Source of the DNA: Bacteroidales bacterium
Lineage (GTDB): Bacteria > Bacteroidota > Bacteroidia > Bacteroidales > WCHB1-69
DNA: 64,000 bases
Direction: 5' to 3'
NCBI GenBank assembly: GCA_017525505.1
Contig: JAFXSR010000033.1
Location: forward strand, 43,531 to 107,530
Position numbers and translations under genes: made by a program
Notes under the pieces: generated by a model
What the model was told of the DNA's origin: nothing
Databases searched by the model: none
What the model saw: only the letters and a program-made list of their open reading frames with translations
Part shown: positions 7,701 through 50,145 of the stretch, piece after piece
Layout: every line of letters starts with the position of its first letter
How positions within the stretch are numbered: position 1 is the stretch's first letter

Positions 7701-10700
7701 AACTAATTGTGAGCATGGTGTTCAAGTTGAATTTACAGGTACTTCAACTTCAACTTATATTCCAACCTATGGAAATTATAACTATAGTTTCTCACAACAA
7801 ATTTTCAAGAGTTCTGAAATTAATGCTGCTACCACAATTTCTGGTTTTGAAATTGAGGTTAGCAACACCGGTTCAAAAGCAAGAAATATTGACATTTACA
7901 TGATGCATACATCTGCAAACGAAATTACTTCTTGGTTGCCTATGGACAATGCCCAGTTGGTTTATTCAGGTGTTGTTGCTTTCACAGAAGGATGGCAGCA
8001 AATTAATTTCGATACTCCATTTAACTATAATGGAACAGACAACTTGGTGTTGATTGTGGATGATAATACTGGTTCATGGGGTAGCTATCCTACCTTCCGT
8101 ACTCATGCCGGTGGATCAAATATAGCAAGATATTATTATACTGACAGTTATAATGTTGATCCATTCAATCCGGGTGCAACAGCAGCAGGTTCCGCTTATA
8201 CATACAGAAACAACATCAGAATAACCAACTGTCCTGAAGCTACAGATTTGGCTATCACAGACATCAACACTTTCGCAGACGCTTGCGATGTGGAAGGTGC
8301 TGTCACTGTTGGTGTGAAGAATATGGGTTATGAAGGTACCGTTAGCACATTCGAAGCTTACTATCAGGTGAATGAGGAGACTCCGGTTCATGAAACCGTT
8401 ACCTTGGCCACCCCGATTGCATTCAATGAAGCTGCCACCTATACTTTCAACCAGCTTCCTGCTTTCACCACTGGTGAAAACACTTTGACCGCTTGGGTTG
8501 AATTAACAGGCGATGCTGTTGATGCCAACAACACCATTACTTCAGCTCCTATCACTGTTCTGGCTCCTATCGCTGTTCCTTACGAAGAAGCATTCACAGG
8601 TCTGACTATCAACCATGGTTGGAATCCGATCGATGCCAACAACGACGGTGTCACCATGAACCTGAACAACAACATCAACTATACTTTCAACGATTTGGCC
8701 GCTGCTGACGACTGGATGATGTCACCTTGTATTGAAATGGCTGCTGGTACTTATACCATTATCTATGACTATAAGGCTAACAGCTCACTGACCGAATCCT
8801 TCGAAGTATTCTATGGCAATGGCGCACATATCGCCGATATGACCAACGCCGTGGCTACTCATAGCTTCAACAATACTATCAATGAGACAGCTACCACTAC
8901 TATCACTATCGACGCTGACGGTATCTACAACTTCGGCTTCCACGCCACTTCATTGCCTGGCAACTTAGGTTTCAGCATCGATAACTTCAAAGTATATCCT
9001 GTTAACGATGTTATCGTAACTTACAATGAGTTGGGTGGTACAGTTACTCCTAATGACACTATCGCTGTCAACTATGGTGAAGACCTCACCCTGAACCTCG
9101 TTCCGAATCCTATGTACCACGTGGCTGGTGTTTGGGTTGATAATGTACAGGTAGTTCCTGAAGACGGTACAGGCGCTAACTTCATGCTCTATACCTTGGA
9201 GAATGTTACAGAGCCTCATACCGTATTCGTAGATTTCAAACTTGAATTCCATATCTTTAAAACTGTTGAAAACTACAGATCTGACCTCTATAGCGATCTC
9301 GGTGGTAAGTTTGTGAATACAGAATTGCCAGTTGACACTACCATCAATCCTGATCCTTTCACTGTGAACATGGAGGCTGATCCTCACTATTTCTTGACAG
9401 GTTTGACCCTCAGCCCGATGGATCCTGATATGCAGATTGATGTGTTTGCAGACGTTGTTGACAATGGTGATGGTACTTACAGCTATACTATCGATACTTT
9501 GGTCGTGGCCAACTACTATCTGAACGCTACATTCAGAAGAGACACTGTGGCTATCAACTACAATGTTTTGACTGGTAAGGGCTATGCTAATGACAGTGAG
9601 CTGATGACCGCTGGTGACACCTATACTACTTGGGTTGACTACTCAGTAAACAATGATGTTGATACTACCATTGCTTTCTATGCTGATGAAATCGATGGCT
9701 ATCATATTGTGGATGTTATCGTTAATGGTGAGTCTCAAGGCCGTGTTGACAGCTACACCTTTGAAAATGTTACTGAAACTCAAAATGTTGATCTTAAATT
9801 CGGTTACAGAATCGACGCATTCGTAAGCAATTACAATACGTATGACAGTATTACTGACATCATGGGCACTATTATTCCTGATACCCAGTATGTGGCTGAG
9901 TATGATCCTATGATGGTTATTGGTACTGTTGAAGAGCACTTCCACTTGTATCAGTTCTTCGTGAACGGCGTGAACAGAATCGACGAAGTGGTATTCGGTA
10001 GTGATCCTCATTACTACTACTTCACTATGGATTCTATCGCTGAAAACTACACTATCGAAGCAGTTGTTAAGGTTGACACCTTCGCTATCACTTATAACGT
10101 AATGGCTGGCCAGGGTTATGCCGACGCTAGCGACCTCTTGGTTGAGGGTGAAAGCTTCAGTACTGTTGTGAACTATGCTGACAACTGGTATAGCAATATC
10201 ATTCCTGCCACCGGTTATTCTATCGACAATGTTACTTTGGACGGTCAGAACTTATATACCGCCAATAACTATCAGTTCAACTATGTCGAAGAATCTCATG
10301 AATTCTATATCTATTTCGAACCCAATACCTATACTGTTACTACCAATGCATACGGTAACGGTCTTGTAAGTGATGGTATTACTTTCACATACGATCCCGA
10401 CAGCACTGTCAACTATGAATTCAACGCTATGGCAGCCGAGGGTTACCACATTGCTTCTGTGGTGATTAACAATGCTGAAGTTGAAGTTACTGATCCTCAG
10501 ACCTTCGCTTATACTATCGAAAATGTGGCTGACAACTATTTGATCAACGTTTATTTTGCAATCAACACTTACACTATGACTGCTGAAGCTTCACAGGGTG
10601 GTGTGATTACTCCTAACGGTGTTCAGGTGGTGAATTATGGTGACGATGTAGATTACGAAATCGTTGCTAACCAAGGCTGGTACATTGCTCAGACTGTTAT

Positions 10701-26723: not shown

Positions 26724-27058
26724 TTTTATGAATTGATTCGCGGCGTCAGCACCAACGTACTTACCCCTCAATGTAGTAGGTGATCAGTCGTGCTGAAAGC
26801 ACGCAATCCTATTAACCCCGCATAAGCGTAGCGCAATGTGGGGTATGCGGCAAACAGCTCTGCTCCTGCGTGCCGTAGGTACGCCACATTGGAGAGGATG
26901 TAGCGTGCTTTCAGCACGCAGACAGGACTTGTCATTGTACGCCCCACACAACAAGTTGTGCGGGGTTAATAGGATATCGTGCCTTTGGCACGCCTCTTTG
27001 TCTTTCAAATTGTTTAATGAATTGATTCGCGGCGTCAACACCAACGTACTCATCCCTC
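26724..27058. repeat. Composite palindromic GC-hairpin element flanked by 45 bp direct repeats
   Basis: The direct repeat tgaattgattcgcggcgtcaRcaccaacgtact occurs at 26727-26770 and 27015-27058. The core has a 17 bp perfect inverted repeat: atcctattaaccccgca (about 26806) and tgcggggttaataggat (about 26961). Nested hairpins include cgtgctgaaagcacg, ccccgcataagcgtagcgcaatgtgggg, gcgtgccgtaggtacgc, gcgtgctttcagcacgc, ccccacacaacaagttgtgcgggg and cgtgcctttggcacg. Confidence 0.8.
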
Positions 27059-27160
27059 ACATCTCCATGCTCACATCTCCATGCTCACATCTCCATGCTC
27101 ACCGCTCACTGCCCACCGCTCATCGCTCATCGCTCACCGCCCACCCCTCATAGCTCATAG
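27056..27160. repeat. Word array (CTCACATCTCCATG x3, then CTCAYYGCY words)
   Basis: Three exact 14-mers are followed by ctcaccgctcactgcccaccgctcatcgctcatcgctcaccgcccacccctcatagctcatagc. The complementary words agctatgagccatgagc lie at about 26700-26716, on the other side of the hairpin element. Confidence 0.85.
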
Positions 27161-32527: not shown

Positions 32528-32680
32528 AGTTACACGGTTACGTGGTTACACGGTGAGAAGGTTAAGGGATTTAGAAGGTTTACAAGGTTTAGGAGGTTGA
32601 AGGAGATAAACTTCCTAAACCTCATAAACTACTAACCGTGTAACCGCGTAACCGAGTAAACTTCCAAAGTTCCCCATTGC
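32528..32680. repeat. Long imperfect hairpin built from inverted word arrays (no cargo)
   Basis: The left arm is gagttacacggttacgtggttacacggtgagaaggttaagg...aaggtttaggagg. The right arm is ttcctaaacctcataaactactaaccgtgtaaccgcgtaaccgagtaaac. The ends are complementary: cggttacgYggttacacgg and aggtttagga. Confidence 0.75.
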
Positions 32681-36686: not shown

Positions 36687-37211
36687 ATGACAGATGTGGG
36701 AAAGGCATGGTTTGCAATGAAAGTGTTTCAAAACAAGGTTTTTGAAATCGAAAGCTATTTGCAAGCCAAGGACACCGAGACTTATTTTCCGGTACGCTAT
36801 GAGGAGAAAACGATAGGTGGGGTGAAGAAAACGGTGCGCAAGCCGGTCATCACATCTCTGATTTTCTTCCGAACTTATTCCGAAAATCTGGCAGAAATTG
36901 AGAAGGACTTGAGTTCCAAGGTGGCCTTGTATCGCTATAGGAAATCACATCAGGTGGCTGTCATCCCCGATCGGGAGATGGATATCTTCAAGATGGTGAC
37001 CTCGGTGAGCAACAACAACTGGGATTATGTGGATGTGGCGGCCATGAGCTTCCGTCCCGAGGACCGTGTGCGGGTGATCGATGGGGAATTCAAGGGTGCC
37101 GAGGGCTATATCAAGCGCATCAAGGGCAACCGCCGACTCGTAGTTGCCATTGAGGGCGTCGTTGCCGTCGCCACTGCGTACATCCCGTCGTGCTACTTGG
37201 AGAAGTTGTGA
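36687..37211 (+). CDS. UpxY-family (NusG-like) capsule-operon transcription antiterminator
   Basis: The NGN-like N-terminus reads WFAMKVFQNKVFEIESYLQ...YFPV. The KOW motif is RVRVIDGEFKGAEGYIKRIKGNRRLVV. It is the first gene of the polysaccharide locus. Confidence 0.8.
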   Translation: MTDVGKAWFAMKVFQNKVFEIESYLQAKDTETYFPVRYEEKTIGGVKKTVRKPVITSLIFFRTYSENLAEIEKDLSSKVALYRYRKSHQVAVIPDREMDIFKMVTSVSNNNWDYVDVAAMSFRPEDRVRVIDGEFKGAEGYIKRIKGNRRLVVAIEGVVAVATAYIPSCYLEKL

Positions 37212-37550: not shown

Positions 37551-37640
37551 AACAGTTGACAGTTAACAGTTGACAGTTAACAGTTGACAATTGACAGTTG
37601 ACAATTGACAGTTGAAAACTGAAAACTGAAAGTTGACAGG
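37551..37640 (+). repeat. Word array (GTTGACAG / TTAACAG / TTGAAAAC / TGAAAG)
   Basis: The sequence is gttgacagttaacagttgacagttaacagttgacaattgacagttgacaattgacagttgaaaactgaaaactgaaagttgacagg. Confidence 0.9.
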
Positions 37641-37660
37641 ATTCAAGTTTCAGGTTACAG

Positions 37661-37861
37661 TTCAAAATCCATAATCCATAATCCAAAATCTCTTCTAACC
37701 TTCTCACCCTCTCACCTTCCTAACCCTCCTCACCTTCCTAACCCTCCTCACCTTCCTAACCCTCCTCACCTTCCTCACCTTCCTAACCCTCCTAACCCTC
37801 CTAACCTTTACCCCCTCCTAACCCTCCTAACTTTAACCCCCCCCTACCCCCACCCCCTCCC
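37661..37861 (+). repeat. 201-nt G-free, C-rich word array (CCTYCTMAC units) upstream of wza
   Basis: I read it base by base and found no G between 37661 and 37861. Only one G (37862) occurs before the wza ATG. The units read ccttcctaaccctcctcac... Confidence 0.9.
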
Positions 37862-37883: not shown

Positions 37884-38714
37884 ATGAAAAAACACCTATT
37901 CTTTATCATTGCCGCAGTGATGCTGCTGGCATCGTGCAACACCACGAAGAAGATCACTTATTTTCAGGATATCCAGAATTATACGGACACGACCAAGTCA
38001 GTGGCGCCTCCGGCTCCGGAAATCCGCTTGCGTCCTGATGACAAGATTTCAGTCATCGTCAACAGCAGAGACCCCGAGTTGACGAATATGTTCAATTTGG
38101 CCTATGTGACGCGTACATTGGGAAGTACAAGTGAAAACATTTCAACGGGAACACAGCATGGAACCTCCGGCTATGTTGTCAAAAGAGACGGTACCATCGA
38201 TTTTCCTGTATTGGGTTCGATAATAGCCGCGGGCAAAACCCGCGAAGAGCTCTCGGCTTATATCAAAAACGAGTTGATTAGCCAGGGTTTGGTCAGCGAT
38301 CCTATTGTGACGGTGGAGTTTATCAACCTGCAGTTTTCCGTAATGGGTGAGGTGAAAAAGCCAGGTTCTTACAATATTAACCGAGATTACATTACCCTTC
38401 TGGATGCTTTGTCCATGGCTGGAGATATGACCATCAGCGGTAAGCGTGAGAATGTGCTGGTATTACGCCCGGACTCTATAGGCAAGCTCACTGCTTATAC
38501 GGTGGATATGCGTTCTTTTGCCGAGGTCCAGAATTCACCGGTTTATTATATCCATCAGAACGATTACATCTATGTGGAGCCTAACAGGAAGAAAGCCAAC
38601 GAGTCAACAGTCAATGCCAACACGGTTCAGTCCGCCGCGTTCTGGATTTCCGTCGCTTCTTTCCTCGCCTCTATCGCCTCCACGATTTCCGTCATCGTGA
38701 CGAGAGCAAAATAA
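37884..38714 (+). CDS. wza: Polysaccharide export outer-membrane lipoprotein (Wza-like)
   Basis: The lipobox is LLASCNT. The Poly_export motif region reads LRPDDKISVIV...DGTIDFPVLGSI.AAGKT..EL, followed by an SLBB-like segment. Confidence 0.85.
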   Translation: MKKHLFFIIAAVMLLASCNTTKKITYFQDIQNYTDTTKSVAPPAPEIRLRPDDKISVIVNSRDPELTNMFNLAYVTRTLGSTSENISTGTQHGTSGYVVKRDGTIDFPVLGSIIAAGKTREELSAYIKNELISQGLVSDPIVTVEFINLQFSVMGEVKKPGSYNINRDYITLLDALSMAGDMTISGKRENVLVLRPDSIGKLTAYTVDMRSFAEVQNSPVYYIHQNDYIYVEPNRKKANESTVNANTVQSAAFWISVASFLASIASTISVIVTRAK

Positions 38715-38804: not shown

Positions 38805-41330
38805 ATGCAAGAAAATCAAAACGCAACAGCGAACAACATTGAACAGCAAGGAGAGCAGGCCATAGACTTGAAGGCGATATTTTACCTTTGCCTTTCCAAT
38901 TGGTACTGGTTTCTGATTTCAGTCATCTTGTGTCTGGCCATAGCCACTTTTTATCTGAAGAAAACCATCCCGGTCTATACCCGTTCAGCCAAAGTGCTGG
39001 TGAAATCCGACAACAAGGGTCACTCAGCCATGAATGTCAGCGATTTCTCGGACCTGGGGCTTTTCAGCAGTGGGGTCAGCATCAACAATGAGCTGCTCAC
39101 CATCCAATCCCTCGACAATGTGGAGGAGGTGGTGCTCCGTTTGCAATTGGATAAAAACTACACTTCCGACGGTCTGCTTCATCCTGTTTTGTTGTACGGA
39201 GAAAATTTGCCCGTCAAGGTGGAGATGCCCGGCATTGACGATCAGGCGGTTCTTTCCTTTGATATTAAACTCCAGGGAACCAAGTTCACCCTTTCCGAAT
39301 TCATGTTGGGTAAGGAAGAGAAAACGGGCTCCGTTACCGCCAAGCTGGGCGATACTGTTGCCACACCGGTGGGTGTTCTTTGTGTGGTTCCCACAGAGTT
39401 TTTCAATCCCAAAAGTCAGTACAAAACCATTCACGTACAGCGTTCCTCTATTGGAAGTACGGCACGAACCTACGTTGGCAAGCTTACGGTGGCGTTGGCG
39501 GCCAAACAGACCGATGTGATGAGCTTGACGGTGAATGACATTTCCAAACAAAGGGCCGACGATTTTATCAATATGCTCATTGCCGTGTATAATGGCAATT
39601 GGCTGAAAGACAAGAACCAGGTAATGGTGAGTACTTCCATGTTTATCAATGACCGTTTGCAGATCATTGAAAAGGAATTGGGCTCGGTGGACGATGACAT
39701 TTCCTCATACAAAAGTGCCAATCTCATGCCCGATGTGGGAGCGGTATCCAGCATCTGGTTGAATCAGAACACGGTTACGACCAACCGAATTCAGGATTTG
39801 AACAACCAGATTGCCATGACCCGCTATGTGCGCAACTATCTGATCAATATGAAGAAGAAAGACCAGCTTCTGCCGGTAAACTCGGGTATTGGCAGTGGAC
39901 AGATCGAAGGTCAGTTAGCGGAATATAACGCCATGATGCTGAAAAGAAACAACCTGGTGGCCCATAGTAGCGAGCAAAGTCCTTTGGTGCTCGAAATGGA
40001 TGACAAGCTGGCCACTATGCGCCAGGCCATCGTTGCCACACTCGACAGCCAGTTGGAAAGCCTCAACACCCTCTTGCAGAGTTTCCAAGGCACTGGACGA
40101 CAAATCAACTCCCGCCTGGCTGCCAGCCCGGGACAGGCCAAGTACTTGTTGTCGGTGGAACGTCAGCAGAAGGTGAAGGAGTCGCTGTATTTGTTCCTCT
40201 TGCAGAAACGTGAGGAAAACGAGTTGTCGCAGGCTTTTACCGCTTACAATACCCGTGTGATTGAGAAACCCAATGGCTCTCCCAATCCTACCAAGCCCAA
40301 AAAGTCTCTCATCCGTTTGGTTGCTGTCATCCTGGGTTTGGCTATTCCGGGCTTTATCCTCTTTATGATCGATTACCTGAACACCACCGTGCGTAGCCGC
40401 AAGGATTTGGAGAAACTGAGTGTGCCGCTCGTTGGCGAGATTCCGTTGGTCTATAATCCGGAGGATGCCAAGAAAAACAGAAAGAAGAAAAAAGAGATAC
40501 GGCATAATGGACAGAGCAATCCTGAGGGTTTCGCCAAGACCGTGGTGGTGAAACATGGCAGCCGTAATGTCATTAACGAGGCTTTCCGTGTGTTCCGTAC
40601 CAATCTGGAGTTCATGACCAAGAACAAGGAGAACAATGTCTTTATGTTCACCTCCTTCAATCCGGGTTCCGGTAAGTCTTTTATCGCCATCAACTCGGCC
40701 ATCAGCTTGGCCATCAAAAAGCGCAAAGTGCTGGTTATCGACGGTGACTTGCGCCATGCCTCCCTGTCCGCCTACATTTTCTCCCCAAAGAAGGGTATCG
40801 CCAATTATTTGGGTCGCCAGGAGGAGGATGTTCATAAATTGATTATCCAGAGTGATGATTATCCTTGTCTGAGCTACCTGCCCGTGGGTACCATTCCGCC
40901 TAACCCCACTGAGTTGCTAGAGGATGAGCGTTTCGGTGAGTTAATCAAAATATTGAAGCAGGAGTATGACTATGTGATGATTGACTGTCCGCCTATCGAC
41001 ATTGTGGCCGACCCGCAGATTATCAACAAGTATGTAGATCGTACCGTCTTCGTGGTGCGTGCCGGTTTGATGGAGCGCAGCCTTATTCCCGAACTGGAGA
41101 AATTATACACGCAGCACAAATATGTCAACTTGTGCATGTTGCTCAACGGCACTACCAGCTCCGATGGCCGCTATGGCTACCGTTACGGTTACCGCTATGG
41201 CTATCGTTATGGTTACCGCTATGGCTACAAGTACGGCTATGGCTATCACAATGCCTACGGCAAGCACAGCGCCTACGGTGGGTATTATCATGAGGATGAT
41301 GAGACGGAGGAGGGGGGAAGTGGAAAGTAG
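38805..41330 (+). CDS. wzc: Polysaccharide co-polymerase / tyrosine autokinase (Wzc-like)
   Basis: It has a Wzz-type N-terminal TM helix and periplasmic coiled coil. The Walker A is TSFNPGSGKSFIAINSA and the Walker B is VMIDCPP. The C-terminal Tyr cluster is GRYGYRYGYRYGYRYGYRYGYKYGYGYHNAYGKHSAYGGYY. Confidence 0.9.
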   Translation: MQENQNATANNIEQQGEQAIDLKAIFYLCLSNWYWFLISVILCLAIATFYLKKTIPVYTRSAKVLVKSDNKGHSAMNVSDFSDLGLFSSGVSINNELLTIQSLDNVEEVVLRLQLDKNYTSDGLLHPVLLYGENLPVKVEMPGIDDQAVLSFDIKLQGTKFTLSEFMLGKEEKTGSVTAKLGDTVATPVGVLCVVPTEFFNPKSQYKTIHVQRSSIGSTARTYVGKLTVALAAKQTDVMSLTVNDISKQRADDFINMLIAVYNGNWLKDKNQVMVSTSMFINDRLQIIEKELGSVDDDISSYKSANLMPDVGAVSSIWLNQNTVTTNRIQDLNNQIAMTRYVRNYLINMKKKDQLLPVNSGIGSGQIEGQLAEYNAMMLKRNNLVAHSSEQSPLVLEMDDKLATMRQAIVATLDSQLESLNTLLQSFQGTGRQINSRLAASPGQAKYLLSVERQQKVKESLYLFLLQKREENELSQAFTAYNTRVIEKPNGSPNPTKPKKSLIRLVAVILGLAIPGFILFMIDYLNTTVRSRKDLEKLSVPLVGEIPLVYNPEDAKKNRKKKKEIRHNGQSNPEGFAKTVVVKHGSRNVINEAFRVFRTNLEFMTKNKENNVFMFTSFNPGSGKSFIAINSAISLAIKKRKVLVIDGDLRHASLSAYIFSPKKGIANYLGRQEEDVHKLIIQSDDYPCLSYLPVGTIPPNPTELLEDERFGELIKILKQEYDYVMIDCPPIDIVADPQIINKYVDRTVFVVRAGLMERSLIPELEKLYTQHKYVNLCMLLNGTTSSDGRYGYRYGYRYGYRYGYRYGYKYGYGYHNAYGKHSAYGGYYHEDDETEEGGSGK

Positions 41331-41383
41331 ATAGTAGAAAGTATAAAGTATAAAGTAGATAGTAGAAAGTAGAAAGTAGATGG
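41328..41383 (+). repeat. 7-nt word array AGTAKAW x8
   Basis: The array agtagat agtagaa agtataa agtataa agtagat agtagaa agtagaa agtagat begins within the wzc stop codon. Confidence 0.9.
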
Positions 41384-41384
41384 G

Positions 41385-41771
41385 TTAGGGGGTGGATAGT
41401 TGATTGTTCAATTTTTTGCGAAGGCCTGAGAGCATTTTTGCTATTTCAGTTATCTGTGGACGCAATTCGTTGAGTTGCGCTTCAGTTATGTAAGCCAGGT
41501 CCGCTGCTGTTTGTAGTTCGCTAAAGACTTCCATTAACGAGCCAAATGATATCTCAAGAAAGTGTATTTTTTCTTTGACAGATTGGCGTCCGCTTCCTTC
41601 CGCAAGATTAGCTGTAATGGAAATAGCTGCTCTACGCACCTGATTTCCAAGTCCATAACGCTCTTCAATAGGGAATATACGCTGCAAGCGATAAACATCT
41701 GCAACCAAAGATCTACATTTCTTATAAACTTCTAACCTTTCAAAAGCAAAACTTCTCATAGAATTCATCAT
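41385..41771 (-). CDS. Four-helix-bundle protein (23S rRNA intervening-sequence / Avd family)
   Basis: FERLEVYKKCRSLVADVYRL...FPIEERYGLGNQVRRAAISITANLAEGSGRQSVKEKIHFLEISFGSLMEV is the family signature. The start is moved to MMNSMRSF. It is antisense to the capsule operon. Confidence 0.85.
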   Translation of the reverse strand: MMNSMRSFAFERLEVYKKCRSLVADVYRLQRIFPIEERYGLGNQVRRAAISITANLAEGSGRQSVKEKIHFLEISFGSLMEVFSELQTAADLAYITEAQLNELRPQITEIAKMLSGLRKKLNNQLSTP

Positions 41772-41825
41772 ATACCAAAATGTAATAAACCAAACTATAA
41801 ACGAAATAAAACAAAAAAAATTATA

Positions 41826-41893
41826 AACCATAAACAAAAAAATCTATAAACCATAAACTATAAACTATATACTATATACTATATACTTTACAA
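41826..41893 (+). repeat. 7-nt word array (CCATAAA / CTATAAA / CTATATA), approximate complement of 41328-41383
   Basis: The sequence is aaccataaacaaaaaaatctataaaccataaactataaactatatactatatactatatactttacaac. Confidence 0.8.
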
Positions 41894-41894
41894 C

Positions 41895-42572
41895 ATGTTA
41901 TTCTCCAAACCAATCAACACCTACCTCAAAGGCTTCACCGACCATCACTCCCATATATTGCCCGGAGTGGATGATGGAGTGAAGAAGATGGAGGTATCCC
42001 TGCAGGTGCTGGAAAAGTACGAGCAGTTGGGTATCGCTGAGGTGTGGTGTACCCCGCATACCATGGAAGATATTCCCAATACTACGGAAGGTCTCAAAAG
42101 CCGTTTTGCGGAGCTGTGCGAGGCCTACAAGGGTCCCATCAAGCTGCATCTGGCTTCTGAATATATGATGGACGGCCTTTTCGAGGAACGTCTGGAAGAG
42201 GGTAATCTGCTGACTTTGGGCGAGGAGGGCAACCAGCTTTTGGTGGAGACCTCTTATTTCACTCCGCCCATCGATATGGACACTATCTTGCGCCGCATCC
42301 GTCAGAAGGGTTATTTCCCAGTGCTGGCTCATCCCGAGCGTTATATATACATGGATAAAGAACAGTATCATGAACTCAAGGACGAGGGTATCCGTTTTCA
42401 GCTCAACCTATCTTCCATTGCCGGTGCTTACGGTCCCGATGTCAAAGCCAAGGCCCTCTGGCTCCTCAAGAAACAATACTACGACCTTGCCGGCTCCGAT
42501 CTCCACTCGCTGAGAAACGTTTCCTTCTGGGAGGCACGAGCTCCGCGGGCCCTGAGGAAGTTTTTGGGATAG
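41895..42572 (+). CDS. PHP-family protein-tyrosine phosphatase (CpsB/YwqE-like)
   Basis: The N-terminal metal motif is DHHSHILPGVDDG, with LAHPERY later. It sits next to the Wzc-like kinase. Confidence 0.85.
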   Translation: MLFSKPINTYLKGFTDHHSHILPGVDDGVKKMEVSLQVLEKYEQLGIAEVWCTPHTMEDIPNTTEGLKSRFAELCEAYKGPIKLHLASEYMMDGLFEERLEEGNLLTLGEEGNQLLVETSYFTPPIDMDTILRRIRQKGYFPVLAHPERYIYMDKEQYHELKDEGIRFQLNLSSIAGAYGPDVKAKALWLLKKQYYDLAGSDLHSLRNVSFWEARAPRALRKFLG

Positions 42573-42632
42573 AAGGATAGAAGGTTAGAAAGGTTAGAAA
42601 GGTTAGGAGGGTTAGGAGGGTTAGGAGGGTTA
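42573..42632 (+). repeat. 8-9-nt word array GGWTAGRAR x8 (part of a 98 nt C-free tract, 42553-42650)
   Basis: The array ggatagaa ggatagaa ggttagaaa ggttagaaa ggttaggag x4 begins at the phosphatase stop. It supplies the last codons of the antisense gene. Confidence 0.9.
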
Positions 42633-43004
42633 GGAGGGTAAAGTGTTTAGCTTTTTTTTGAAAGATGCTCTTAATCCTATTAGCATTTTAGATACATATT
42701 CGAATTCAGGCTTCATTTTGTTTACATTACTGATCGAGATATAATTCAAATCAACAGCTATTAGTAATTGACAATAGCATTCCATTAAAGAACCATAAGC
42801 AATTTCTATAAAGTGGATTTTTTCTTTAACTGATGTTCTACCACTTCCTTCTGCAATATTTGATGGAACAGAAACTATTGACCTTCTGATTTGATCGCAT
42901 AACGCATACCGTTCTATAGACGGAAATTCTTTTAAGGTATCATACACTGAAACAACAAGCTTTTTGGATACTTGCCAAACTTCTAAACTTTCAAACGAGA
43001 ACAT
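42630..43004 (-). CDS. Four-helix-bundle protein (23S rRNA intervening-sequence / Avd family), second copy
   Basis: The family signature is FESLEVWQVSKKLVVSVYDTLKEFPSIERYALCDQIRRSIVSVPSNIAEGSGRTSVKEKIHFIEIAYGSLMEC. Its own TATTTTTG box is at 43040-43047 (minus). Confidence 0.85.
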   Translation of the reverse strand: MFSFESLEVWQVSKKLVVSVYDTLKEFPSIERYALCDQIRRSIVSVPSNIAEGSGRTSVKEKIHFIEIAYGSLMECYCQLLIAVDLNYISISNVNKMKPEFEYVSKMLIGLRASFKKKLNTLPS

Positions 43005-43047: not shown

Positions 43048-43065
43048 CAAAAAAATAAAAATAAC

Positions 43066-43212
43066 CCTCCTAACCCTCCTAACCTTTCTAACCTTCCTAA
43101 CCTTCCTAACCCTCCTAACCCTCCTAACCCTCCTAACCTTCCTAACCTTCCTAACCTTCCTAACCCTCCTAACCCTCCTAACCCTCCTAACCTTCCTAAC
43201 CCTCCTAACCCA
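43066..43212 (+). repeat. 9-nt word array CCTYCTAAC x about 17, inside a 204-nt G-free tract (43040-43243)
   Basis: The units read ccctcctaaccctcctaacctttctaaccttcctaacc.... It is the reverse complement of the arrays at 42573-42632, 44607-44730 and 45825-45912. There is no G until the ugd ATG. Confidence 0.9.
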
Positions 43213-43241: not shown

Positions 43242-44609
43242 ATGAAAATCTCCGTCGCAGGTACCGGCTATGTGGGTATGAGCATCGCCACTCTACTCGC
43301 TCAACATAATGAAGTAACCGCTGTGGACGTGGTTCCAGAGCGTGTTGACATGGTGAACCATAAAAAGTCTCCTATCCAGGATGACTATATTGAAGACTTT
43401 TTGGCCCACAAACCCTTGACTATCAGTGCTACCCTTGACCAGGAGGCGGGCTACCGCGAGGCCGACTTTGTGGTCATTGCGGCCCCTACCAATTACGACC
43501 CCCAGAAGAATTTCTTCGACACCTCGGCAGTAGAGGCGGTCATTGATGCCGTGCTGAAGGTGAACCCCGATGCGGTTATGGTCATCAAGAGCACCATTCC
43601 GGTGGGATATACCCGTTCGCTGTATGTCAAATATTACAGGCAAGGGGCTAAGAAATTCAACCTGTTGTTCAGCCCCGAGTTCCTGCGCGAGAGCAAGGCC
43701 CTGTACGATAACCTTTATCCCTCTCGTATCATTGTGGGTACCCCGAAAATGATGAAGGGCAAGGACTATGAGGAGGAAAACGAAGCTATCAAGGCACTCA
43801 CCGATATCGACTGGATCAGCCAGAAAGCCCATCAGTTTGCCGGTCTTCTTGTGGAAGGCGCCATCGGCCCCTCTCCAGACACCTGCTCACCCTCTAACCC
43901 TCTCACGCCCTCTCAACCCAACAAAGGCATTTCCGTCCTCTTCATGGGCATGAAGGAAGCCGAGGCGGTGAAGCTTTTCGCCAACACTTACCTGGCTCTC
44001 CGTGTAAGCTATTTTAATGAGTTAGATACCTATGCCGAGGTAAAAGGTCTTGACCCTCAGTCTATTATAGAAGGGGTTGGGCTCGATCCCCGTATTGGTT
44101 CGCATTACAACAACCCCAGTTTCGGTTATGGCGGCTACTGTTTGCCCAAGGATACCAAGCAGCTGCTGGCCAACTATGCCGATGTGCCTCAGAACATGAT
44201 GAGCGCCATCGTGGAAAGCAACAGAACCCGCAAGGACTTTATTGCCGACCAAGTGCTCAAGATGGCAGGTTATTACGCTTATAGCGAGAATAATCAATTC
44301 AAAAATCAGGGTTCAGAATTCAAAGTTCCCACCATTGGTGTCTTTAGATTGACGATGAAATCTAACAGCGACAATTTCCGTCAGTCGGCCATCCAGGGCA
44401 TCATGAAGCGCATCAAGGCCAAGGGGGCCAACGTTATCATCTACGAGCCCACTTTGGAGAACGGTACCATGTTTTTTGGCAGCCTTATTATCAACGACCT
44501 TGTCCAGTTCAAAACCCAGAGCCAGGCTATCATCGCCAACCGTTACGATGCCTGCCTGGATGATGTGAAAGAGAAGGTTTATACGAGGGATATTTTCAAA
44601 AGGGATTAG
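43242..44609 (+). CDS. ugd: UDP-glucose 6-dehydrogenase
   Basis: The Rossmann N-terminus is [21 protein letters not shown]. The catalytic Cys context is [18 protein letters not shown], with [28 protein letters not shown] nearby. Confidence 0.9.
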
Positions 44610-44730
44610 GTTAGAGAGGTTAGGAAGGTTAGGAAGGTTAGAGGGTGAGAAGGTGAGAAGGTTAGAAAGGTTAGGAAGGTTAGAAAGGTTAGGAAGGTTA
44701 GGAAGGTTAGGAAGGTTAGAAGAGATTATG
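44607..44730 (+). repeat. Word array GGTTAGRAR / GGTGAGAA (part of a 154 nt C-free tract, 44598-44751)
   Basis: ggttagagaggttaggaaggttaggaaggttagagggtgagaaggtgagaaggttagaaagg... begins at the ugd stop codon. Confidence 0.9.
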
Positions 44731-44740
44731 GTTTATATTT

Positions 44741-44920
44741 GCGTCACTACCCCGGCCTTCGGCCACCCGTTGGAGGCTACGCCTCCTTTCTCCTCCTCGC
44801 TCGGGAAAGCTCAATCAAGCTTGGCTTTCCTCTCGCTCCTTCGTCGAATCTAAAAGAAGGGGAATTAACTTTCAGTTTTCAGTTTTCAACTGTCAACTGT
44901 CAATTATCAACTATCAACTA
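44741..44920 (-). repeat. Family-A composite element, copy 2 (inverted), including its word leader
   Basis: tttgcgtcactaccccggccttcggccacccgttggaggctacgcctcc...ctcctcgctc...ctctcgctccttcgtcgaatc...aattaactttcagttttcagttttcaactgtcaac is the reverse complement of the copy-1 pattern. Confidence 0.75.
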
Positions 44921-44922
44921 AT

Positions 44923-45813
44923 ATGAAAGGCATCGTTCTCGCCGGAGGTTCCGGCACCAGGTTATATCCTATTACCAAGGGTGTGAGCAAACAGTTGCTG
45001 CCCATTTACGATAAACCTATGGTATATTATCCTATCAGTGCGTTGATGCTGGCGGGGATTAGGGATATTCTGATTATCAGCACCCCTTATGATTTGCCCG
45101 GTTTCAAACGGCTTTTGGGTGATGGCAGCGACTACGGTGTGCATTTCGAGTATGCCGAGCAGCCCAGTCCCGACGGTTTGGCTCAGGCTTTCATCATTGG
45201 CGAGAAGTTCATCGGTGACGATTGTGCCTGCCTGGTGTTGGGTGACAATATATTCTATGGTAACGGCTTTACGACATTGTTGCTCAATGCCGTAAAAGAC
45301 GCGGAGCACAACAAAAAGGCTACCGTTTTTGGCTACTGGGTGGCCGATCCCGAACGCTACGGTGTGGCGGAGTTTGACAAGCAGGGCAATTGCCTGAGTA
45401 TCGAGGAGAAACCGAAAGAACCTAAGAGCAACTATGCCGTGGTGGGGCTCTACTTCTATCCCAACAAGGTGGTGAATGTGGCCAAGACCATCAAACCTTC
45501 CGCGCGTGGCGAGTTGGAGATTACCACCGTCAACCAGCGTTTTCTGGAAGATGGAGAGTTGAAGGTGCAGGTCTTTGGTCGTGGTTTTGCCTGGCTGGAC
45601 ACGGGTACGCATGATTCATTGGCCGAGGCTTCCATTTTTGTGGAGACCATCGAGAAACGTACAGGATTGAAAATCGCCTGCCTTGAGGGCATCGCCTACC
45701 GCAACGGCTGGATCAGCGAGGAAAAGATGCGTCAGCTGGCCCAGCCGATGCTGAAGAACCAATACGGCCAGTACCTGCTGAAGGTGATTGACGAGATGAG
45801 CAGTGAGCGGTGA
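44923..45813 (+). CDS. rfbA: Glucose-1-phosphate thymidylyltransferase
   Basis: [37 protein letters not shown] is the canonical RmlA N-terminus. Confidence 0.95.
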
Positions 45814-45955
45814 GCGGTGAGGCCTGAGGTTAGGAGGGTTAGGAGGGTTAGGAGGGTTAGGAAGGTTAGGAAGGTTAGGAAGGTTAGGAAGGTTAGGAAG
45901 GTTAGGAGGTTACACGGTTAGAAGGTTAGAAGGTGAAAGGGGTTTAGGAGGTTTA
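45814..45955 (+). repeat. Word array (GTGAGCG, GGTTAGGAR x12, GGTTAGAA, GGTTTAGGA)
   Basis: The words start inside the last rfbA codons (agtgagcggtgagcggtgagg). A C-free stretch spans 45825-45912. Confidence 0.9.
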
Positions 45956-45990
45956 GATGGCAAGTGCTTCCTCAAGGATGTGAATGCTAC
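45956..45990 (+). pseudogene. Orphan 35-bp fragment of a nucleotide-sugar dehydrogenase gene (DGKCFLKDVNA)
   Basis: gatggcaagtgcttcctcaaggatgtgaatgct matches ggtggcaaatgcttccctaaggatgtgaacgct at 47846-47878 at 28 of 33 positions. The differences are mostly at third codon positions. Confidence 0.6.
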
Positions 45991-46007
45991 TAATATATAA
46001 TATTAGA

Positions 46008-47675
46008 ATGAAAGGTATACAAAATACTATTACAGGAAATTTTAGCTCAATTATCAGCAATAGCCGGCGTTTTGTTGTCCCGAAATTCCAAAGAGACTAT
46101 TCGTGGAGTAGTGAGCAGTGGGATGATCTGTGGCAAGATATTGAGACGATGATAGAGGAGCATGATGAACATTACATGGGTTATCTTGTTCTTCAGACTC
46201 AAGACGATAAGCTTTTTTACATAATAGATGGACAGCAGCGCTTTACTACGGTATTGATTCTTATTTATGCTGCAATAAAGTGCGTGCAGAGACAGATTGC
46301 CCAGGGTGTGGATGTTGAGGACAATAGGCGTCGATGCGAATCTTTGAAGAATTTGTACATAGGGAAAGAGGATCCTGTAACATTAGACTATGACAACCTC
46401 TTAACTTTGAACAGGAATAATAACGCTTATTTCTGTGACTATATCTTGAAATTGGGTGATTTGAAGGCACGAAATCTTACAGCAACAGAAAAACTGATGC
46501 GTAGCTGCTTTGAGTATTATGAGCAAAGGCTTATTGGCAAGTTCAATAGTGGAAAAGAGTATGCTTCTTTCATCCAGACAGTTGCAGATGGTTTGCATTT
46601 TACGCAAATCGTGGTCAATGATGAGATGAATGCATTCCGTGTATTTGAGACTCTGAATGCACGTGGCGTTCAATTGTCATCTGCAGACTTGTTAAAGAAT
46701 TATTTGTTCTCTAAAGTTGATAGCGAAACCACTCATAGTAGCCGTATAGATACGTTAGAGCGCAAATGGAGCAAGCTCACCGATAATATTAAGGCCGAGA
46801 AGCTTCCAGAGTTTCTTCGCTATTATTGGAATATGCAGCACAAAACAATTCGTGCCAATGCCGTATATAAAACTATTCGTCAGGAGATTAAGGAAGATAA
46901 GCAAGTGTTCCTTTTGTTGGATGACCTCATCTCTTATAGTGATATTTATATGGCATTGACTGATGAGAATGATGAAATGTGGACAGATTCGGAGGTTAAG
47001 GATAATGTGGCTCTGCTTAATCTTTTCCGCCTGAAACAGCCTTTCTCATTGCTTATGGCTGCCAAGAAGAGTTTGACGGACAATGAGTTCAAACGGGTGC
47101 TGAAGACTGTTATCATGGTGTGTTTTCGCTATAATGTAATCTGCGATAGAAATCCCAATGACCAAGAAACTCCATTTAATGCGCTTGCTCAATCTATAAG
47201 CCATAATAATCTTGTTGATTTGAAGGAGCTTTCATCGATCATGGTGGATGATGCTGAGTTCAAGAGTGCATTTAAAGAAAAGACTTTCCCTTATAACTCG
47301 CGTAATGCCAAAGTTATGAGGTACATATTGGGAAAGATAGAGCATTTCAAAGGCTCTGCCCAGGCAGTTCGTTTTGATGATGAGAACGCATCTATAGAAC
47401 ATGTTTATCCCCAGAATCCTTCTGAAGAGTGGGATTTGGACGAATCTAAGATGCAACGTTTTGTTTTTCGACTTGGAAACATCTGCCTTTTGGAAAAAGG
47501 ATTGAATAGGGATTTGCAAAATGCAAGTTTCGCAGAAAAGGTTTCAGTTTATAAAAAGTCATCATTTTATTATGCTCAAAAAATATCATCAGAATATAAT
47601 GAATGGAATGATAGCGCTATAATAAAGCTTCAGACCGAGATGGCAAACGCTGCTGTATCTATTTGGCGAGTATAA
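46008..47675 (+). CDS. DUF262 + DUF1524 protein (GmrSD-like type IV restriction / nucleotide-targeting defence enzyme)
   Basis: The N-terminal DUF262 motifs are FVVPKFQRDYSWSSEQWDDLWQDI and IIDGQQRFTT. The C-terminal His-Me/DUF1524-like motifs are IEHVYPQNP...GNICLLEKGLNRDLQNASFAEK. The start is moved to MKGIQNT. Confidence 0.8.
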   Translation: MKGIQNTITGNFSSIISNSRRFVVPKFQRDYSWSSEQWDDLWQDIETMIEEHDEHYMGYLVLQTQDDKLFYIIDGQQRFTTVLILIYAAIKCVQRQIAQGVDVEDNRRRCESLKNLYIGKEDPVTLDYDNLLTLNRNNNAYFCDYILKLGDLKARNLTATEKLMRSCFEYYEQRLIGKFNSGKEYASFIQTVADGLHFTQIVVNDEMNAFRVFETLNARGVQLSSADLLKNYLFSKVDSETTHSSRIDTLERKWSKLTDNIKAEKLPEFLRYYWNMQHKTIRANAVYKTIRQEIKEDKQVFLLLDDLISYSDIYMALTDENDEMWTDSEVKDNVALLNLFRLKQPFSLLMAAKKSLTDNEFKRVLKTVIMVCFRYNVICDRNPNDQETPFNALAQSISHNNLVDLKELSSIMVDDAEFKSAFKEKTFPYNSRNAKVMRYILGKIEHFKGSAQAVRFDDENASIEHVYPQNPSEEWDLDESKMQRFVFRLGNICLLEKGLNRDLQNASFAEKVSVYKKSSFYYAQKISSEYNEWNDSAIIKLQTEMANAAVSIWRV

Positions 47676-47691
47676 TTGAATAAAGATAATT

Positions 47692-47974
47692 ATGATCAAC
47701 GTCGGAATCATCGGCTGCGGCTTCGTGGGTGGAGCCCTCAAGGAGTGGTTGGAACACAACAATCCTGAATGCAAGCTTTTCATCAGCGACCCCGCCAAGG
47801 GCTACACACACCCATGTTCCGGGTCCCGACGGCAAGTACGGTTATGGTGGCAAATGCTTCCCTAAGGATGTGAACGCTTTCGCCAAGATGACGGAAGGCA
47901 CATCCCTTGGAACTCTTCTGGAACACCTCCACGAGCTTAATGTCCATTTCCGTGGGGAGGAAGAGCATATCTGA
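47692..47974 (+). pseudogene. Remnant of a nucleotide-sugar dehydrogenase gene (internal deletion plus frameshift)
   Basis: Frame 1 reads MINVGIIGCGFVGGALKEWLEHNNPECKLFISDPAKGY, a Rossmann N-terminus, and then becomes junk. Frame 2 from about 47815 reads VPGPDGKYGYGGKCFPKDVNAFAK..., the catalytic-Cys motif. Hundreds of codons are missing between the two. Confidence 0.75.
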
Positions 47975-48017
47975 AACCTATAAAAAGCGTACTAGAACAC
48001 AAATATAGCAAAACATT

Positions 48018-48446
48018 ATGGGTGTTTACGAAGAACAAATAGTGCCAATCAAGATTTCGCGCTTGGCAGAATATGTGTCCAGGAGGAAGCATATTGCTCT
48101 GGAGGATGCCCTTGTGTACATATATTCCAATCCTATGTACGACCGGTTATATGACGAAGGGGCCAAGTGGTGGTATCTTAGTACTGAAGCGCTTTATGAT
48201 GAGTTTGAGACGGCACGCAATACCGAAAGTAAGAGCGTAACGCATGAGGAATTTGAGTTCTACACTTATTGTTTGGAAAAATATGCTTTGTCAAAAGGTC
48301 TTACAGGTCTTCAAACTCTTGCACTACTGAAGCGTTACGGTGCAGATGATTATCTGATTGACCATTATGGTCTTCTTCATACACAAGGCACCGATTATGT
48401 AATTGATGAGTTAGATCGCTATATTCAGAGGAGGAAAAGAGGATGA
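48018..48446 (+). CDS. DUF3791-domain protein (candidate partner/antitoxin)
   Basis: The C-terminal half EFYTYCLEKYALSKGLTGLQTLALLKRYGADDYLIDHYGLLHTQGTDYVIDELDRYI matches my memory of the DUF3791 consensus. Its stop overlaps the next start (ATGA). Confidence 0.7.
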   Translation: MGVYEEQIVPIKISRLAEYVSRRKHIALEDALVYIYSNPMYDRLYDEGAKWWYLSTEALYDEFETARNTESKSVTHEEFEFYTYCLEKYALSKGLTGLQTLALLKRYGADDYLIDHYGLLHTQGTDYVIDELDRYIQRRKRG

Positions 48447-48826
48447 TAGTGTATCACGGTTCAAATGTTAGGGTTCGCAAGCCCAGTTTGCGTATGAGCA
48501 GGAAGAAGACCGATTTTGGACGCGGCTTTTATACAACAACCCAGAAGGAGCAGGCCGAGCACTGGACCTCCATCAAGATAGATAGGGCAAAAACAGGCCG
48601 CAGAGTCGTGTCGGTTTTTGAGATTGACGACGAACTTCTAACTAATCCTGAACTGAAAATTCGCGAGTTTCATGGCCCTGATGAGGACTGGTTGAATTTC
48701 GTGGTTGACAGTCGTAAAGGTGTGGAGCACGACTACGATCTTGTGTTTGGACCCGTAGCCAATGACAAAGTGTTCACCGTGGTGAACCTTTATGAAAGCG
48801 GTGTTCTAGTATTTTGTAACATCTAA
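48443..48826 (+). CDS. DUF3990-domain protein, possible ADP-ribosyltransferase-fold enzyme; 3' end altered by IS insertion
   Basis: MIVYHGSNVRVRKPSL...TDFGRGFYTTTQKEQAEHW has an HGS...G.G.Y pattern. The present C-terminus ...ESGVLVFCNI* reads into the IS630 inverted repeat. Confidence 0.7.
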   Translation: MIVYHGSNVRVRKPSLRMSRKKTDFGRGFYTTTQKEQAEHWTSIKIDRAKTGRRVVSVFEIDDELLTNPELKIREFHGPDEDWLNFVVDSRKGVEHDYDLVFGPVANDKVFTVVNLYESGVLVFCNI

Positions 48827-48852
48827 AACTTTAATAATTGAAATATTTTTTG

Positions 48853-48860
48853 TATCTTTG
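48853..48860 (+). promoter_or_regulatory. TAnnTTTG promoter box inside IS630 left end
   Basis: TATCTTTG lies 27 nt upstream of the transposase ATG at 48887. Confidence 0.55.
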
Positions 48861-48886
48861 CCGCCGGATATTCAAAGACAGGCATT

Positions 48887-49372
48887 ATGGCAGAGTACAG
48901 AAAATTAAGAATCAAGCTGTCCGAAGAACAGCGCAAATCGTTTGAACAAATTGTCCGCAAAGGCGTTTCAGGGGCAATGGAGATACGCCGTGCCAACGTG
49001 CTGTTGCTCGCCGACGAGGCCGGTGACAGGAAACGCCAGAAGGACGTTGTAATAGCAGGCATGCTCCAAATCACGCCGCAGGCGGTCCACGACATCAAGC
49101 TCAAGTTTCTGGAGAGGAAGGACACCGTCCCCGACGAGCCGAGCTGCGGTATACGCAGGAAGAAGAGGGAGACCCCTCCTGTCCAGCCGAAATGCACGGG
49201 TGATGTGGAAGCGAAAATAACAGCCATCGCCTGCAGCTCCCCTCCCGAAGGTCGTAGCCGCTGGAACCTGCGGCTCATCGCCGACAAGGCTGTCGAATTG
49301 GAGATTGTGGACTCAATTTCACACACACAGGTCGGCCGTATTCTAAAAAAAACCAATATAAGCCTCACTTGA
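48887..49372 (+). CDS. IS630 transposase, N-terminal HTH part (orfA)
   Basis: Helix-turn-helix-like segments read EEQRKSFEQIVRKG...RRANVLLLADEAG and RWNLRLIADKAVE. It ends just after the A8 run. Confidence 0.8.
   Translation: MAEYRKLRIKLSEEQRKSFEQIVRKGVSGAMEIRRANVLLLADEAGDRKRQKDVVIAGMLQITPQAVHDIKLKFLERKDTVPDEPSCGIRRKKRETPPVQPKCTGDVEAKITAIACSSPPEGRSRWNLRLIADKAVELEIVDSISHTQVGRILKKTNISLT
49345..49352 (+). promoter_or_regulatory. A8 slippery run: candidate -1 frameshift (or transcriptional slippage) site fusing orfA and orfB
   Basis: In cta aaa aaa acc, reading one base back gives cta aaa aaa aac caa tat aag cct cac ttg aag aag aca tgg. That translates as LKKNQYKPHLKKTWCIPP, which joins the two ORFs without a stop. 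Confidence 0.55.
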
Positions 49373-50058
49373 AGAAGACATGGTGCATACCTCCCCAGCA
49401 GAATGCCGCTTTCGTGGCAAACATGGAAGATGTGCTGGAAGTCTATGCAAGGCCGTATGACCCTCTCGCCCCTGTGGTTTGCATGGACGAACAACCCATC
49501 GAGCTGCATTATGACAGCAGGGAGACCATTCACTTGTCGGAGAGCAACCATACTGAAAAGGTTGACCACGAATACACAAGGAACGGGACATGCTGCGGCT
49601 TCATGTTCACCGAGCCTCTTGGAGGCTGGAGAAGAGTGACCATTCTGGAACATCGCTGCAAGACAGACTGGGCGCAGCAGATAAAACGCCTTGTCGACGA
49701 AGACTTCCCTGACGCTGAAAAAATAGTTCTGGTGTGTGACAACCTGAACACGCACAACATATCGTCGCTGTATGAAACCTTTGAACCGGCAGAGGCGAGA
49801 CGCATCTGGGAGCGTCTCGAAATGCATCACACCCCGAAACATGGCTCGTGGCTTGACATGGCAGAGACTGAACTTTCCGTGTTTACACGGGAATGCTTGC
49901 GCAGAAGAATCGGAGACATGGAGGTCCTGAAAGCCGAGGCAGAAGCATGGTGCGTTGACCGTAATGCACGGCAGAAAGGCATTGACTGGCATTTTACCAC
50001 GGGAGATGCGAGAATCAAACTCAAACATTTGTATCCTGTTATAAAACTAAAAGATTAG
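49369..50058 (+). CDS. IS630 transposase, DDE catalytic part (orfB)
   Basis: KKTWCIPPQQNAAFVANMEDVLEVY...VCMDEQP...LVCDNLNTH...HHTPKHGSWLDMAE is a DD(E) triad of the Tc1/IS630 type. It has no ATG of its own; the track start is TTG. Confidence 0.85.
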   Translation: MKKTWCIPPQQNAAFVANMEDVLEVYARPYDPLAPVVCMDEQPIELHYDSRETIHLSESNHTEKVDHEYTRNGTCCGFMFTEPLGGWRRVTILEHRCKTDWAQQIKRLVDEDFPDAEKIVLVCDNLNTHNISSLYETFEPAEARRIWERLEMHHTPKHGSWLDMAETELSVFTRECLRRRIGDMEVLKAEAEAWCVDRNARQKGIDWHFTTGDARIKLKHLYPVIKLKD

Positions 50059-50145
50059 ATGTTACAGTGTACTAGTATGGTTTTGAAAAGTGAACAGTGT
50101 CTACAAAAAATAGAAAAATAATGTTCGTGGAATGAAAATTATTAT

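Follow-up and report, generated by a model that had tools for sequence, protein, structure and literature searches.

How does a restriction-type nuclease gene come to lie between two fragments of dehydrogenase genes, next to the sugar-nucleotide genes of a capsule-type locus? This question is raised by a 64,000-nucleotide stretch of a Bacteroidales bacterium genome (GenBank assembly GCA_017525505.1, contig JAFXSR010000033.1, positions 43,531 to 107,530), hereafter the window, in which a GmrSD-like gene stands downstream of rfbA, preceded by a 33-bp orphan piece of a short nucleotide-sugar dehydrogenase gene and followed by a longer remnant of such a gene. An earlier reading of the letters alone, referred to here as the original prediction, had seen in these pieces two homologous alleles at a point of repeated recombinational replacement, with the nuclease gene as the current cargo. 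Our analysis indicates that the region is probably a small defence island, placed where a truncated polysaccharide (capsule-type) operon ends in a Prevotellaceae-like bacterium of the rumen, with layered scars left by several independent events. The loci fetched for comparison carry L numbers.

A GmrSD-like nuclease gene of the HEC-06 type

Profile searches bear out the DUF262/DUF1524 assignment of the gene, with GmrSD_N (DUF262, PF03235; E 2.4e-37) at residues 21-242 and GmrSD_C (DUF1524, PF07510; E 2.8e-28) at residues 421-555. The N-terminal part carries the motifs QRDY at 28 and DGQQR at 74-78, and the C-terminal His-Me finger shows IEHVYPQ at 463 and GNICLL / NRDLQN at 490-505. An alternative ATG lies upstream at 45984; gene callers and homology place the start at 46008. 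The PADLOC model for HEC-06 (PDLC04154) aligns almost from end to end (E 4.5e-203, 674 bits, residues 5-555 against profile positions 7-566 of 569), and the best match among solved structures is the DUF262 protein 9jfl (E 1.9e-19).

HEC-06 protects Escherichia coli from phages, and the protection is lost on mutating Q/R of the DGQQR motif or E/H of the nuclease motif (Payne et al., bioRxiv 10.1101/2024.01.29.577857). The window gene matches it over the full length (DUF262, linker, and DUF1524), keeps both DGQQR and EH, and, like HEC-06, sits co-oriented within a larger gene cluster. The host cluster is different, a polysaccharide operon here whereas HEC-06 resides in Hma, BREX or type I restriction-modification clusters, and the window gene comes from a rumen Bacteroidales bacterium. 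The type IV enzyme GmrSD (Eco94/EcoCT596), BrxU and SspE have PF03235, PF07510 and the NTPase and His-Me motifs in common with it. However, the similarity to SspE is weak and at the domain level only (E 1e-3 to 1e-18) and BrxU gave no match; HEC-06 and BrxU are themselves 23.7% identical over 11% of their alignment (bioRxiv 10.1101/2024.01.29.577857). A specificity for glucosylated hydroxymethylcytosine (glucosyl-hmC) DNA cannot be assumed from GmrSD. By analogy with the family, the DUF262 domain (DGQQR) would bind or hydrolyse a nucleotide, making recognition nucleotide-dependent, and the DUF1524 His-Me finger (EH) would cut invading phage DNA, probably base-modified.

Dehydrogenase remnants on both sides of the nuclease gene

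Immediately past the nuclease gene, tblastn confirmed the predicted pseudogene that joins a Rossmann N-terminus to a catalytic-Cys region in another frame. Codons 1 to ~39-43 (47692-47806) are fused out of frame to codons ~196-251 (47804-47974), and blastn against the intact gene of L059 (47681-47806 aligning with 9991-10115 and 47804-47970 with 10586-10752) places between them a frameshifting internal deletion of 470 bp with a junction overlap of 3 nt. Searches with the pseudogene ends gave short proteins only, and the full-length gene was read from a frameshifted copy (L013); a search with this version returned thousands of intact 251-aa proteins. We use the name DH251 for this short nucleotide-sugar dehydrogenase gene. 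Its intact products contain PF03721 and PF00984 without the UDP-binding PF03720, with a Rossmann GxGxxG N-terminus and a central domain bearing the catalytic-Cys motif GGKCFPKD, and they stop ~30 residues past that motif. The window remnant itself matches PF00984 weakly (E 1.5e-4, 22.3 bits, under the cut-off of 25.4). DH251 therefore shares the Rossmann N-terminus and the catalytic-Cys central domain with the UDP-glucose 6-dehydrogenase family, but, being just 251 aa long, lacking the C-terminal PF03720, scoring 97.1 bits with TIGR03026 (cut-off 189.8) and usually lying directly upstream of a full-length ugd, it is a short paralogue and not a canonical Ugd.

Across the 80 best-matching rumen Bacteroidales species (L014-L093, gene at about 10001-10753 in most) the DH251 proteins are 93-97% identical, and the gene is under strong selection. 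Full-length ugd follows it directly in 62 of these species. DH251 might act as a partner of Ugd or regulate it. The remnant in the window has only ~80-88% DNA identity to these alleles. In other contigs DH251 opens that part of the capsule-type loci which contains glycosyltransferase and flippase genes. The predicted position at the distal end of a capsule locus has to be amended in this respect, the truncated head of a polysaccharide locus being the better description, since in relatives DH251 heads the biosynthetic part.

The orphan fragment in front of the nuclease gene, GATGGCAAGTGCTTCCTCAAGGATGTGAATGCT (DGKCFLKDVNA, 45956-45988), is identical at 28 of 33 bases to the Cys-motif segment of the pseudogene at 47846-47878 (GGTGGCAAATGCTTCCCTAAGGATGTGAACGCT, GGKCFPKDVNA), as had been predicted. 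That such a short match is a chance resemblance might be thought, all the more as the fragment abuts a G-rich array which adds a few spurious upstream matches (tblastn E 0.075). When both strands of the window were probed with the 33-mer, however, the runner-up match reached 21/33, and the best in 100 first-order Markov resamplings of the window reaches 23/33, the binomial probability of 28/33 being 8e-13 per position; moreover, the orphan is in frame and spans the most conserved motif of the DH251 family. The match thus stands well above the background against which the original prediction had wanted it measured, and chance, rejected by the probe and the resampling, retains a negligible probability.

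The five differences between the two segments had been described as falling mostly at third codon positions. This is true for three of them; the other two are second-position changes (G to D, P to L) that strike residues invariant in the DH251 family, which fits a fragment drifting without selection. Compared with 82 DH251 alleles, the orphan reaches up to 30/33, and alleles compared with each other average 27.8/33. At 85% identity, orphan and remnant hence differ as much as DH251 alleles from different species do among themselves, and this points to remnants of two different copies. It is supported, at the level of sequence comparison, that the orphan is the residue of a second, older DH251 copy and not a target duplication, as the original prediction had preferred.

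Same-orientation direct repeats bracketing a cargo could also mean that one gene was duplicated at the insertion, as a target duplication or a local tandem duplication, and diverged later. Nevertheless, the two segments do not have the make-up of a target-site duplication, as they differ at 5 of 33 bp and the right repeat lies 171 bp past the GmrSD stop, inside a gene that keeps its own start. The divergence of 15% over 33 bp also contrasts with the 0.8% that separates strain variants of the whole block, all of which have both junctions, and the orphan is closer to the alleles of two other species, L066 (30/33) and L072 (29/33), than to the adjacent remnant (28/33). Furthermore, a duplication would need to have covered ~660 bp, from the start codon as far as codon 220, nearly all of which must afterwards have been deleted. 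We regard a duplication as very improbable. The orphan and the deletion junctions are present in all 15 fetched loci that contain this stretch (L001-L011 and L154-L157), from at least 11 distinct assembly records, so they are not an artefact of a single-sample assembly.

Recent transfer of the nuclease cassette

In three other contexts (four contigs, L138-L141) a DNA identity of 95.6-96% to the window is limited to the block 46001-47701, containing the nuclease gene only, whereas ugd and rfbA are 74-77% identical there. From the alignment of the flanks, the block might by eye start at ~45989. The genes upstream and downstream vary with each context: the order is rfbA, ugd, Avd-like gene, GmrSD, TIR_2 and, further on, an nSTAND NTPase in L138, and DUF3791, DUF3990, ATPase_2, GmrSD, ugd in L141. 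Both facts argue for a recent horizontal transfer of a one-gene block, and the status of current cargo that had been proposed for the gene is thereby upheld. Homology of rfbA and its array with L138 extends to 45956, the very first base of the orphan, so that, with the cassette possibly beginning at ~45989, the orphan appears as a separate layer squeezed between two blocks.

One possible objection is that the nuclease gene is an old, vertically inherited member of polysaccharide loci and that the dehydrogenase fragments reflect unrelated decay. Relatives of GmrSD (52-96% identity) do recur on the same strand within polysaccharide operons (L130, L138, L098, L102, L103, the L120 group and L129), and sugar-nucleotide and glycosyltransferase families are among their most frequent neighbours. 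The more distant ones (52-90% protein identity), found on the operon strand of such loci, follow ugd (L130), lie downstream of rfbA (L098, L102), come after wza (L103) or, in the human-gut L120 group and L129, stand directly between NusG/UpxY-like and NTP-transferase genes. Against vertical inheritance, the position of the gene differs in every lineage, none of the 80 species having an intact DH251 has a GmrSD gene within 10 kb, and the sharp limits of homology with the closest copies, together with the lower identity of ugd and rfbA, are a strong counter-argument. The notion of an ancestral, syntenic DUF262 gene, named in the original prediction as what would speak against it, is therefore half true at the family level, where relatives recur in polysaccharide operons, but at different positions. 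We consider vertical inheritance unlikely. Among the closest copies, that of L141 (7722-7724) is short by ~143 bp relative to window positions 47458-47600, is called as a protein of 490 aa, and is probably inactive.

The alignment with other strains that had been suggested was successful in locating the intact dehydrogenase (80 species) and also a cargo-free arrangement in another species (L059), where 188 bp separate rfbA (93% protein identity) from an intact DH251, with capsule genes coming next. In close relatives, sought with the exact RfbA, GmrSD and cluster-member proteins, no cargo-free or intermediate state was found; every contig has the same orphan, cassette and deletion, the sole variant being a locus free of the insertion sequence (L154, see below).

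Erosion of DH251 in related genomes

Across metagenomes DH251 has been eroded in at least 49 different ways: the 120 fragment proteins compared include 19 different internal deletions and 30 different fusions that link its 3' part with unrelated sequence. The junctions of these 49 eroded alleles are scattered over residues 125-241. A cluster of breakpoints at codons 214-221 was considered as a recombination site and rejected, microhomology of the KDV and N codons explaining it; the search query, moreover, had biased the set of fragments obtained. In L142, a GalE-N::DH251-C fusion is followed by the cargo of a cyclic-oligonucleotide-based anti-phage signalling system (CBASS), i.e., CD-NTase, TIR-STING and Peptidase_U49, and then by a 77-aa ugd fragment. 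In L145, a 226-aa gene and an AAA_15-like ATPase gene stand between two 3' fragments of DH251 (residues 200-251 and 167-251); the first 62 aligned bases of the two fragments are near-identical and the remainder about 80% identical, a crossover-like pattern. These deletions and fusions, and the other defence cargo beside the remnants in L142, L145 and L146, show that the site is prone to rearrangement, and to this extent the original prediction of repeated recombination is supported.

A more specific mechanism can be envisaged, namely that the Cys-motif segments are att-like ends of a mobile module which has the 3' part of DH251 as its target and which brings along, or duplicates, a copy. L145 would be a second, independent case, with its two 3' fragments around a cargo and its crossover-like identity pattern, and in L142 a DH251 3' remnant precedes the CBASS cargo. 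Yet no integrase or recombinase is found beside the cassette in the window, L138, L141 or L145, the 49 junctions are scattered, the accumulation of right-hand breakpoints at residues 214-219 being the microhomology already mentioned, and the cassette copies of L138 and L141 lack a DH251 repeat. The geometry is also wrong for integration at a 3' end, since the orphan is truncated at either end, and the copy downstream of it has its own start codon. Site-specific integration is thus quite improbable. DH251 fragments were also sought beside the other GmrSD relatives (L094-L141), and none was seen except in L130, where 30 residues gave a weak match 5 kb downstream. In L138 and L141, GmrSD is followed by 20 nt that could be a vestige of the DH251 start (13/20 match, p about 2e-4 to 1e-3), a resemblance that is suggestive and too weak to build on.

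The IS630-family element and the order of events

Downstream of the DH251 remnant, adjacent DUF3791 and DUF3990 genes have, by PADLOC profiles, the composition of a PDC-M13 candidate system. The tblastn homology of DUF3990 stops at 48808, the members of its cluster are 159-165 aa long, and the 40 lost residues were sought throughout the window and found nowhere else. As DUF3990 is truncated, the pair in the window is probably inactive. The truncation coincides with an insertion sequence whose overlapping open reading frames (ORFs) code for HTH_32 (48887-49372, PF13565) and DDE_3 (49369-50058, PF13358) and whose imperfect inverted repeats form 28-nt arms (48806-48833 and 50048-50075, 79% complementary), a combination of DDE_3, helix-turn-helix and terminal inverted repeats that places it in the IS630 family. 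Beyond it there are unrelated genes on the opposite strand; the remainder of the polysaccharide locus is missing in the window, and the element marks its end.

The locus L154 is 99.2% identical to the window over 45855-48809 and has the same orphan, cassette and deletion. It contains no insertion sequence, and behind its full-length DUF3990 (161 aa) comes a word array; the two sequences cease to match at 48809, which is where the element has its left end. Given this element-free locus with an intact DUF3990, and the missing DUF3990 end in the window, the IS630 insertion with deletion is the latest event. The rest of the locus may have been lost through it as well.

The history that we propose is as follows. 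A one-gene GmrSD cassette of ~1.7 kb arrived horizontally and now stands directly in front of the start codon of a DH251 gene; an older DH251 copy on its left has been worn down to 33 bp. The right-hand copy would later have lost 470 bp via a short-overlap deletion, with the DUF3791/DUF3990 candidate defence pair lying downstream of what was left. Lastly, the IS630-family element inserted, removing the end of DUF3990 and probably whatever lay beyond.

Regarding expression, the Bacteroidetes -7 motif TAnnTTTG is found before the UpxY-like gene (36496), rfbA (44734) and the transposase (48853), and a scan between rfbA and DUF3791 found none; sigma-70 and terminator scans of the region were uninformative. 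Since the motif is absent between rfbA and the nuclease gene, GmrSD is probably transcribed by read-through from the operon.

Some points weigh against this reconstruction. No closer relative has an intermediate such as a longer left-hand DH251 copy, so that the order and the mechanism of the early events are reconstructed by inference. The GmrSD cassette has neither a linked recombinase nor a linked transposase, and the promoter argument has as its only basis the absence of one consensus motif.

Layout of the locus and intergenic word arrays

The features of the region are collected in Table 1. The gene order on the plus strand is NusG/UpxY-like, wza, wzc, cpsB, ugd and rfbA, with one Avd-like gene on the minus strand between wzc and cpsB and another between cpsB and ugd. 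The full-length ugd is a member of the conserved sugar-nucleotide head of the locus.

Table 1. Features of the GmrSD-like gene region and of the adjoining polysaccharide locus, in window positions.
Feature	Position	Strand	Basis or remark
NusG/UpxY-like gene	36687-37211	+	
wza	37884-38714	+	
wzc	38805-41330	+	
cpsB	41895-42572	+	
ugd, full-length UDP-glucose 6-dehydrogenase	43242-44609	+	Pfam PF03721, PF00984, PF03720; NCBIfam PRK15057 E 3.5e-151
rfbA, glucose-1-phosphate thymidylyltransferase	44923-45813	+	PF00483 E 5.8e-76; source annotation RfbA
Tandem arrays after rfbA: TGAGCGG x3.6, then AGGTTAGGA-type 9-mers x12.4	45797-45934, degenerate to 45955	.	Tandem Repeats Finder
Orphan DH251 fragment, codons 210-220 around the catalytic Cys	45956-45988	+	28/33 to local remnant
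Transferred GmrSD cassette, block common to L138-L141	46001-47701	+	blastn, 95.6-96% DNA identity
GmrSD-like HEC-06-type nuclease gene, 555 aa, intact	46008-47675	+	Pfam, PADLOC, structure match, motifs
DH251 pseudogene	47692-47974	+	tblastn; blastn vs L059; alignment of intact relatives
DUF3791 gene, first of PDC-M13-type candidate pair	48018-48446	+	Pfam PF12668; PADLOC PDC-M13A/C, E 1.3e-18
DUF3990 gene, truncated at residue 122 of ~161	48443-48826	+	PF13151 profile 1-121 of 152; PADLOC E 2.2e-44
IS630-family insertion sequence	48806-50075	+	Terminal inverted repeats; HTH_32 and DDE_3 ORFs

Arrays of 7-9 bp words occupy most intergenic gaps of the locus (37552-37831, 41318-41380, 41818-41887, 42572-42639, 43062-43211, 44608-44721, 44886-44920 and 45797-45934) and many gaps elsewhere in the window (12387, 17480, 27056-27158, 32529-32659 and 61432), as well as in L138 and L141, where the same words adjoin GmrSD and ugd. 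The word family GGTTAGGAA/GGTTAGGAG appears in both orientations, TAACCCTCC at 43062-43211 being the reverse complement. The array after rfbA had been suspected of an association with deletion or replacement, because it abuts a truncated gene. We have found no specific link: arrays are pervasive, and the block of rfbA and its array is conserved in L138, where an intact ugd comes next. The idea that the array had caused the truncation is therefore not supported; in this clade such an array is a normal intergenic feature and no junction marker.

The two Avd-like genes (41385-41837 and 42630-43004, both on the minus strand) belong to the four-helix-bundle family TIGR02436 (23S rRNA IVP / Avd-like), and genes of this family and of PDDEXK_3 are dispersed across the related loci. 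The C-terminal tail of wzc is of the tandem (YGYR)n type, RYGYRYGYRYGYRYGYRYGYKYGYGY (41168-41228), and is coded by a 12/24-bp repeat. Alignments of ugd with relatives are interrupted at 43842-43940, where the window has ~99 nt coding for a Pro/Ser-rich stretch and L138 has ~45 nt; this looks like a variable linker within Ugd. At the other end of the window, a single ORF of 3500 aa extends over 1744-12246 on the plus strand. The loci L001/L008, on a 263-kb contig from another sample, are 99.9% identical to the window from 43158 (L001 8238) rightwards, and left of this point have FloA, 5'-nucleotidase and Metallophos genes instead of wza, wzc and cpsB. The break falls within the TAACCCTCC array, which is far shorter in L001/L008 and has another copy number in L002, and is either a true rearrangement or a misjoin at the repeat.

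Defence genes in polysaccharide loci

The neighbourhoods of the relatives of GmrSD contain 149 distinct proteins, the top families being AAA_15/AAA_21 ATPases, sugar-nucleotide epimerases/dehydratases, glycosyltransferases, NTP-transferases and PDDEXK_3. Close relatives of the DUF3791/DUF3990 pair lie between ugd and DH251 in L146, together with AbiH, an HD protein and AbiGi, and between ugd and capsule genes in L150, with a GmrSD_N-only protein and AAA_15. Overall, the relatives of both defence modules are found among ugd, rfbA, DH251 and capsule genes, where they adjoin AbiH, HD, AbiGi, TIR, nSTAND, PD-T4-4-like AAA_15 and CBASS genes.

This is likewise what is known from defence islands and hotspots, with variable defence cargo between conserved genes (here ugd, rfbA and DH251), pseudogene scars and insertion sequences. 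Unlike those, the cargo here lies within a polysaccharide operon or at its head, on the operon strand, and a conserved flank, DH251, has itself been eroded repeatedly. Searching a limited literature library (DUF262 with UpxY, DUF3791 with DUF3990, and defence in Prevotella capsule loci), we found no description of the arrangement. A broader proposal would be that the heads of polysaccharide operons in rumen and gut Prevotellaceae (UpxY/ugd/rfbA/DH251) form a dedicated exchange site for defence cassettes, with DH251 and perhaps the word arrays as recombination anchors, and with co-transcribed cassettes, so that restriction and abortive infection would switch with capsule type. We put this forward as a speculation that is rather unlikely to hold as a whole.

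Taken for itself, the window gene was acquired recently as cargo and belongs to a known family with experimental validation. Its surroundings are a fairly ordinary defence-island scar, in which clear traces date the events at one more restriction gene of the GmrSD/HEC-06 type. Across the clade, polysaccharide loci repeatedly have defence genes interspersed with their sugar-nucleotide genes, on the strand of the operon, and the DH251 beside them is repeatedly eroded. If this embedding means co-transcription, phage defence and capsule expression, both of which set phage susceptibility in Bacteroidales, would be coupled. Two patterns deserve to be followed further: defence genes lie time and again within the polysaccharide operons of Prevotellaceae, and DH251 has been eroded repeatedly.

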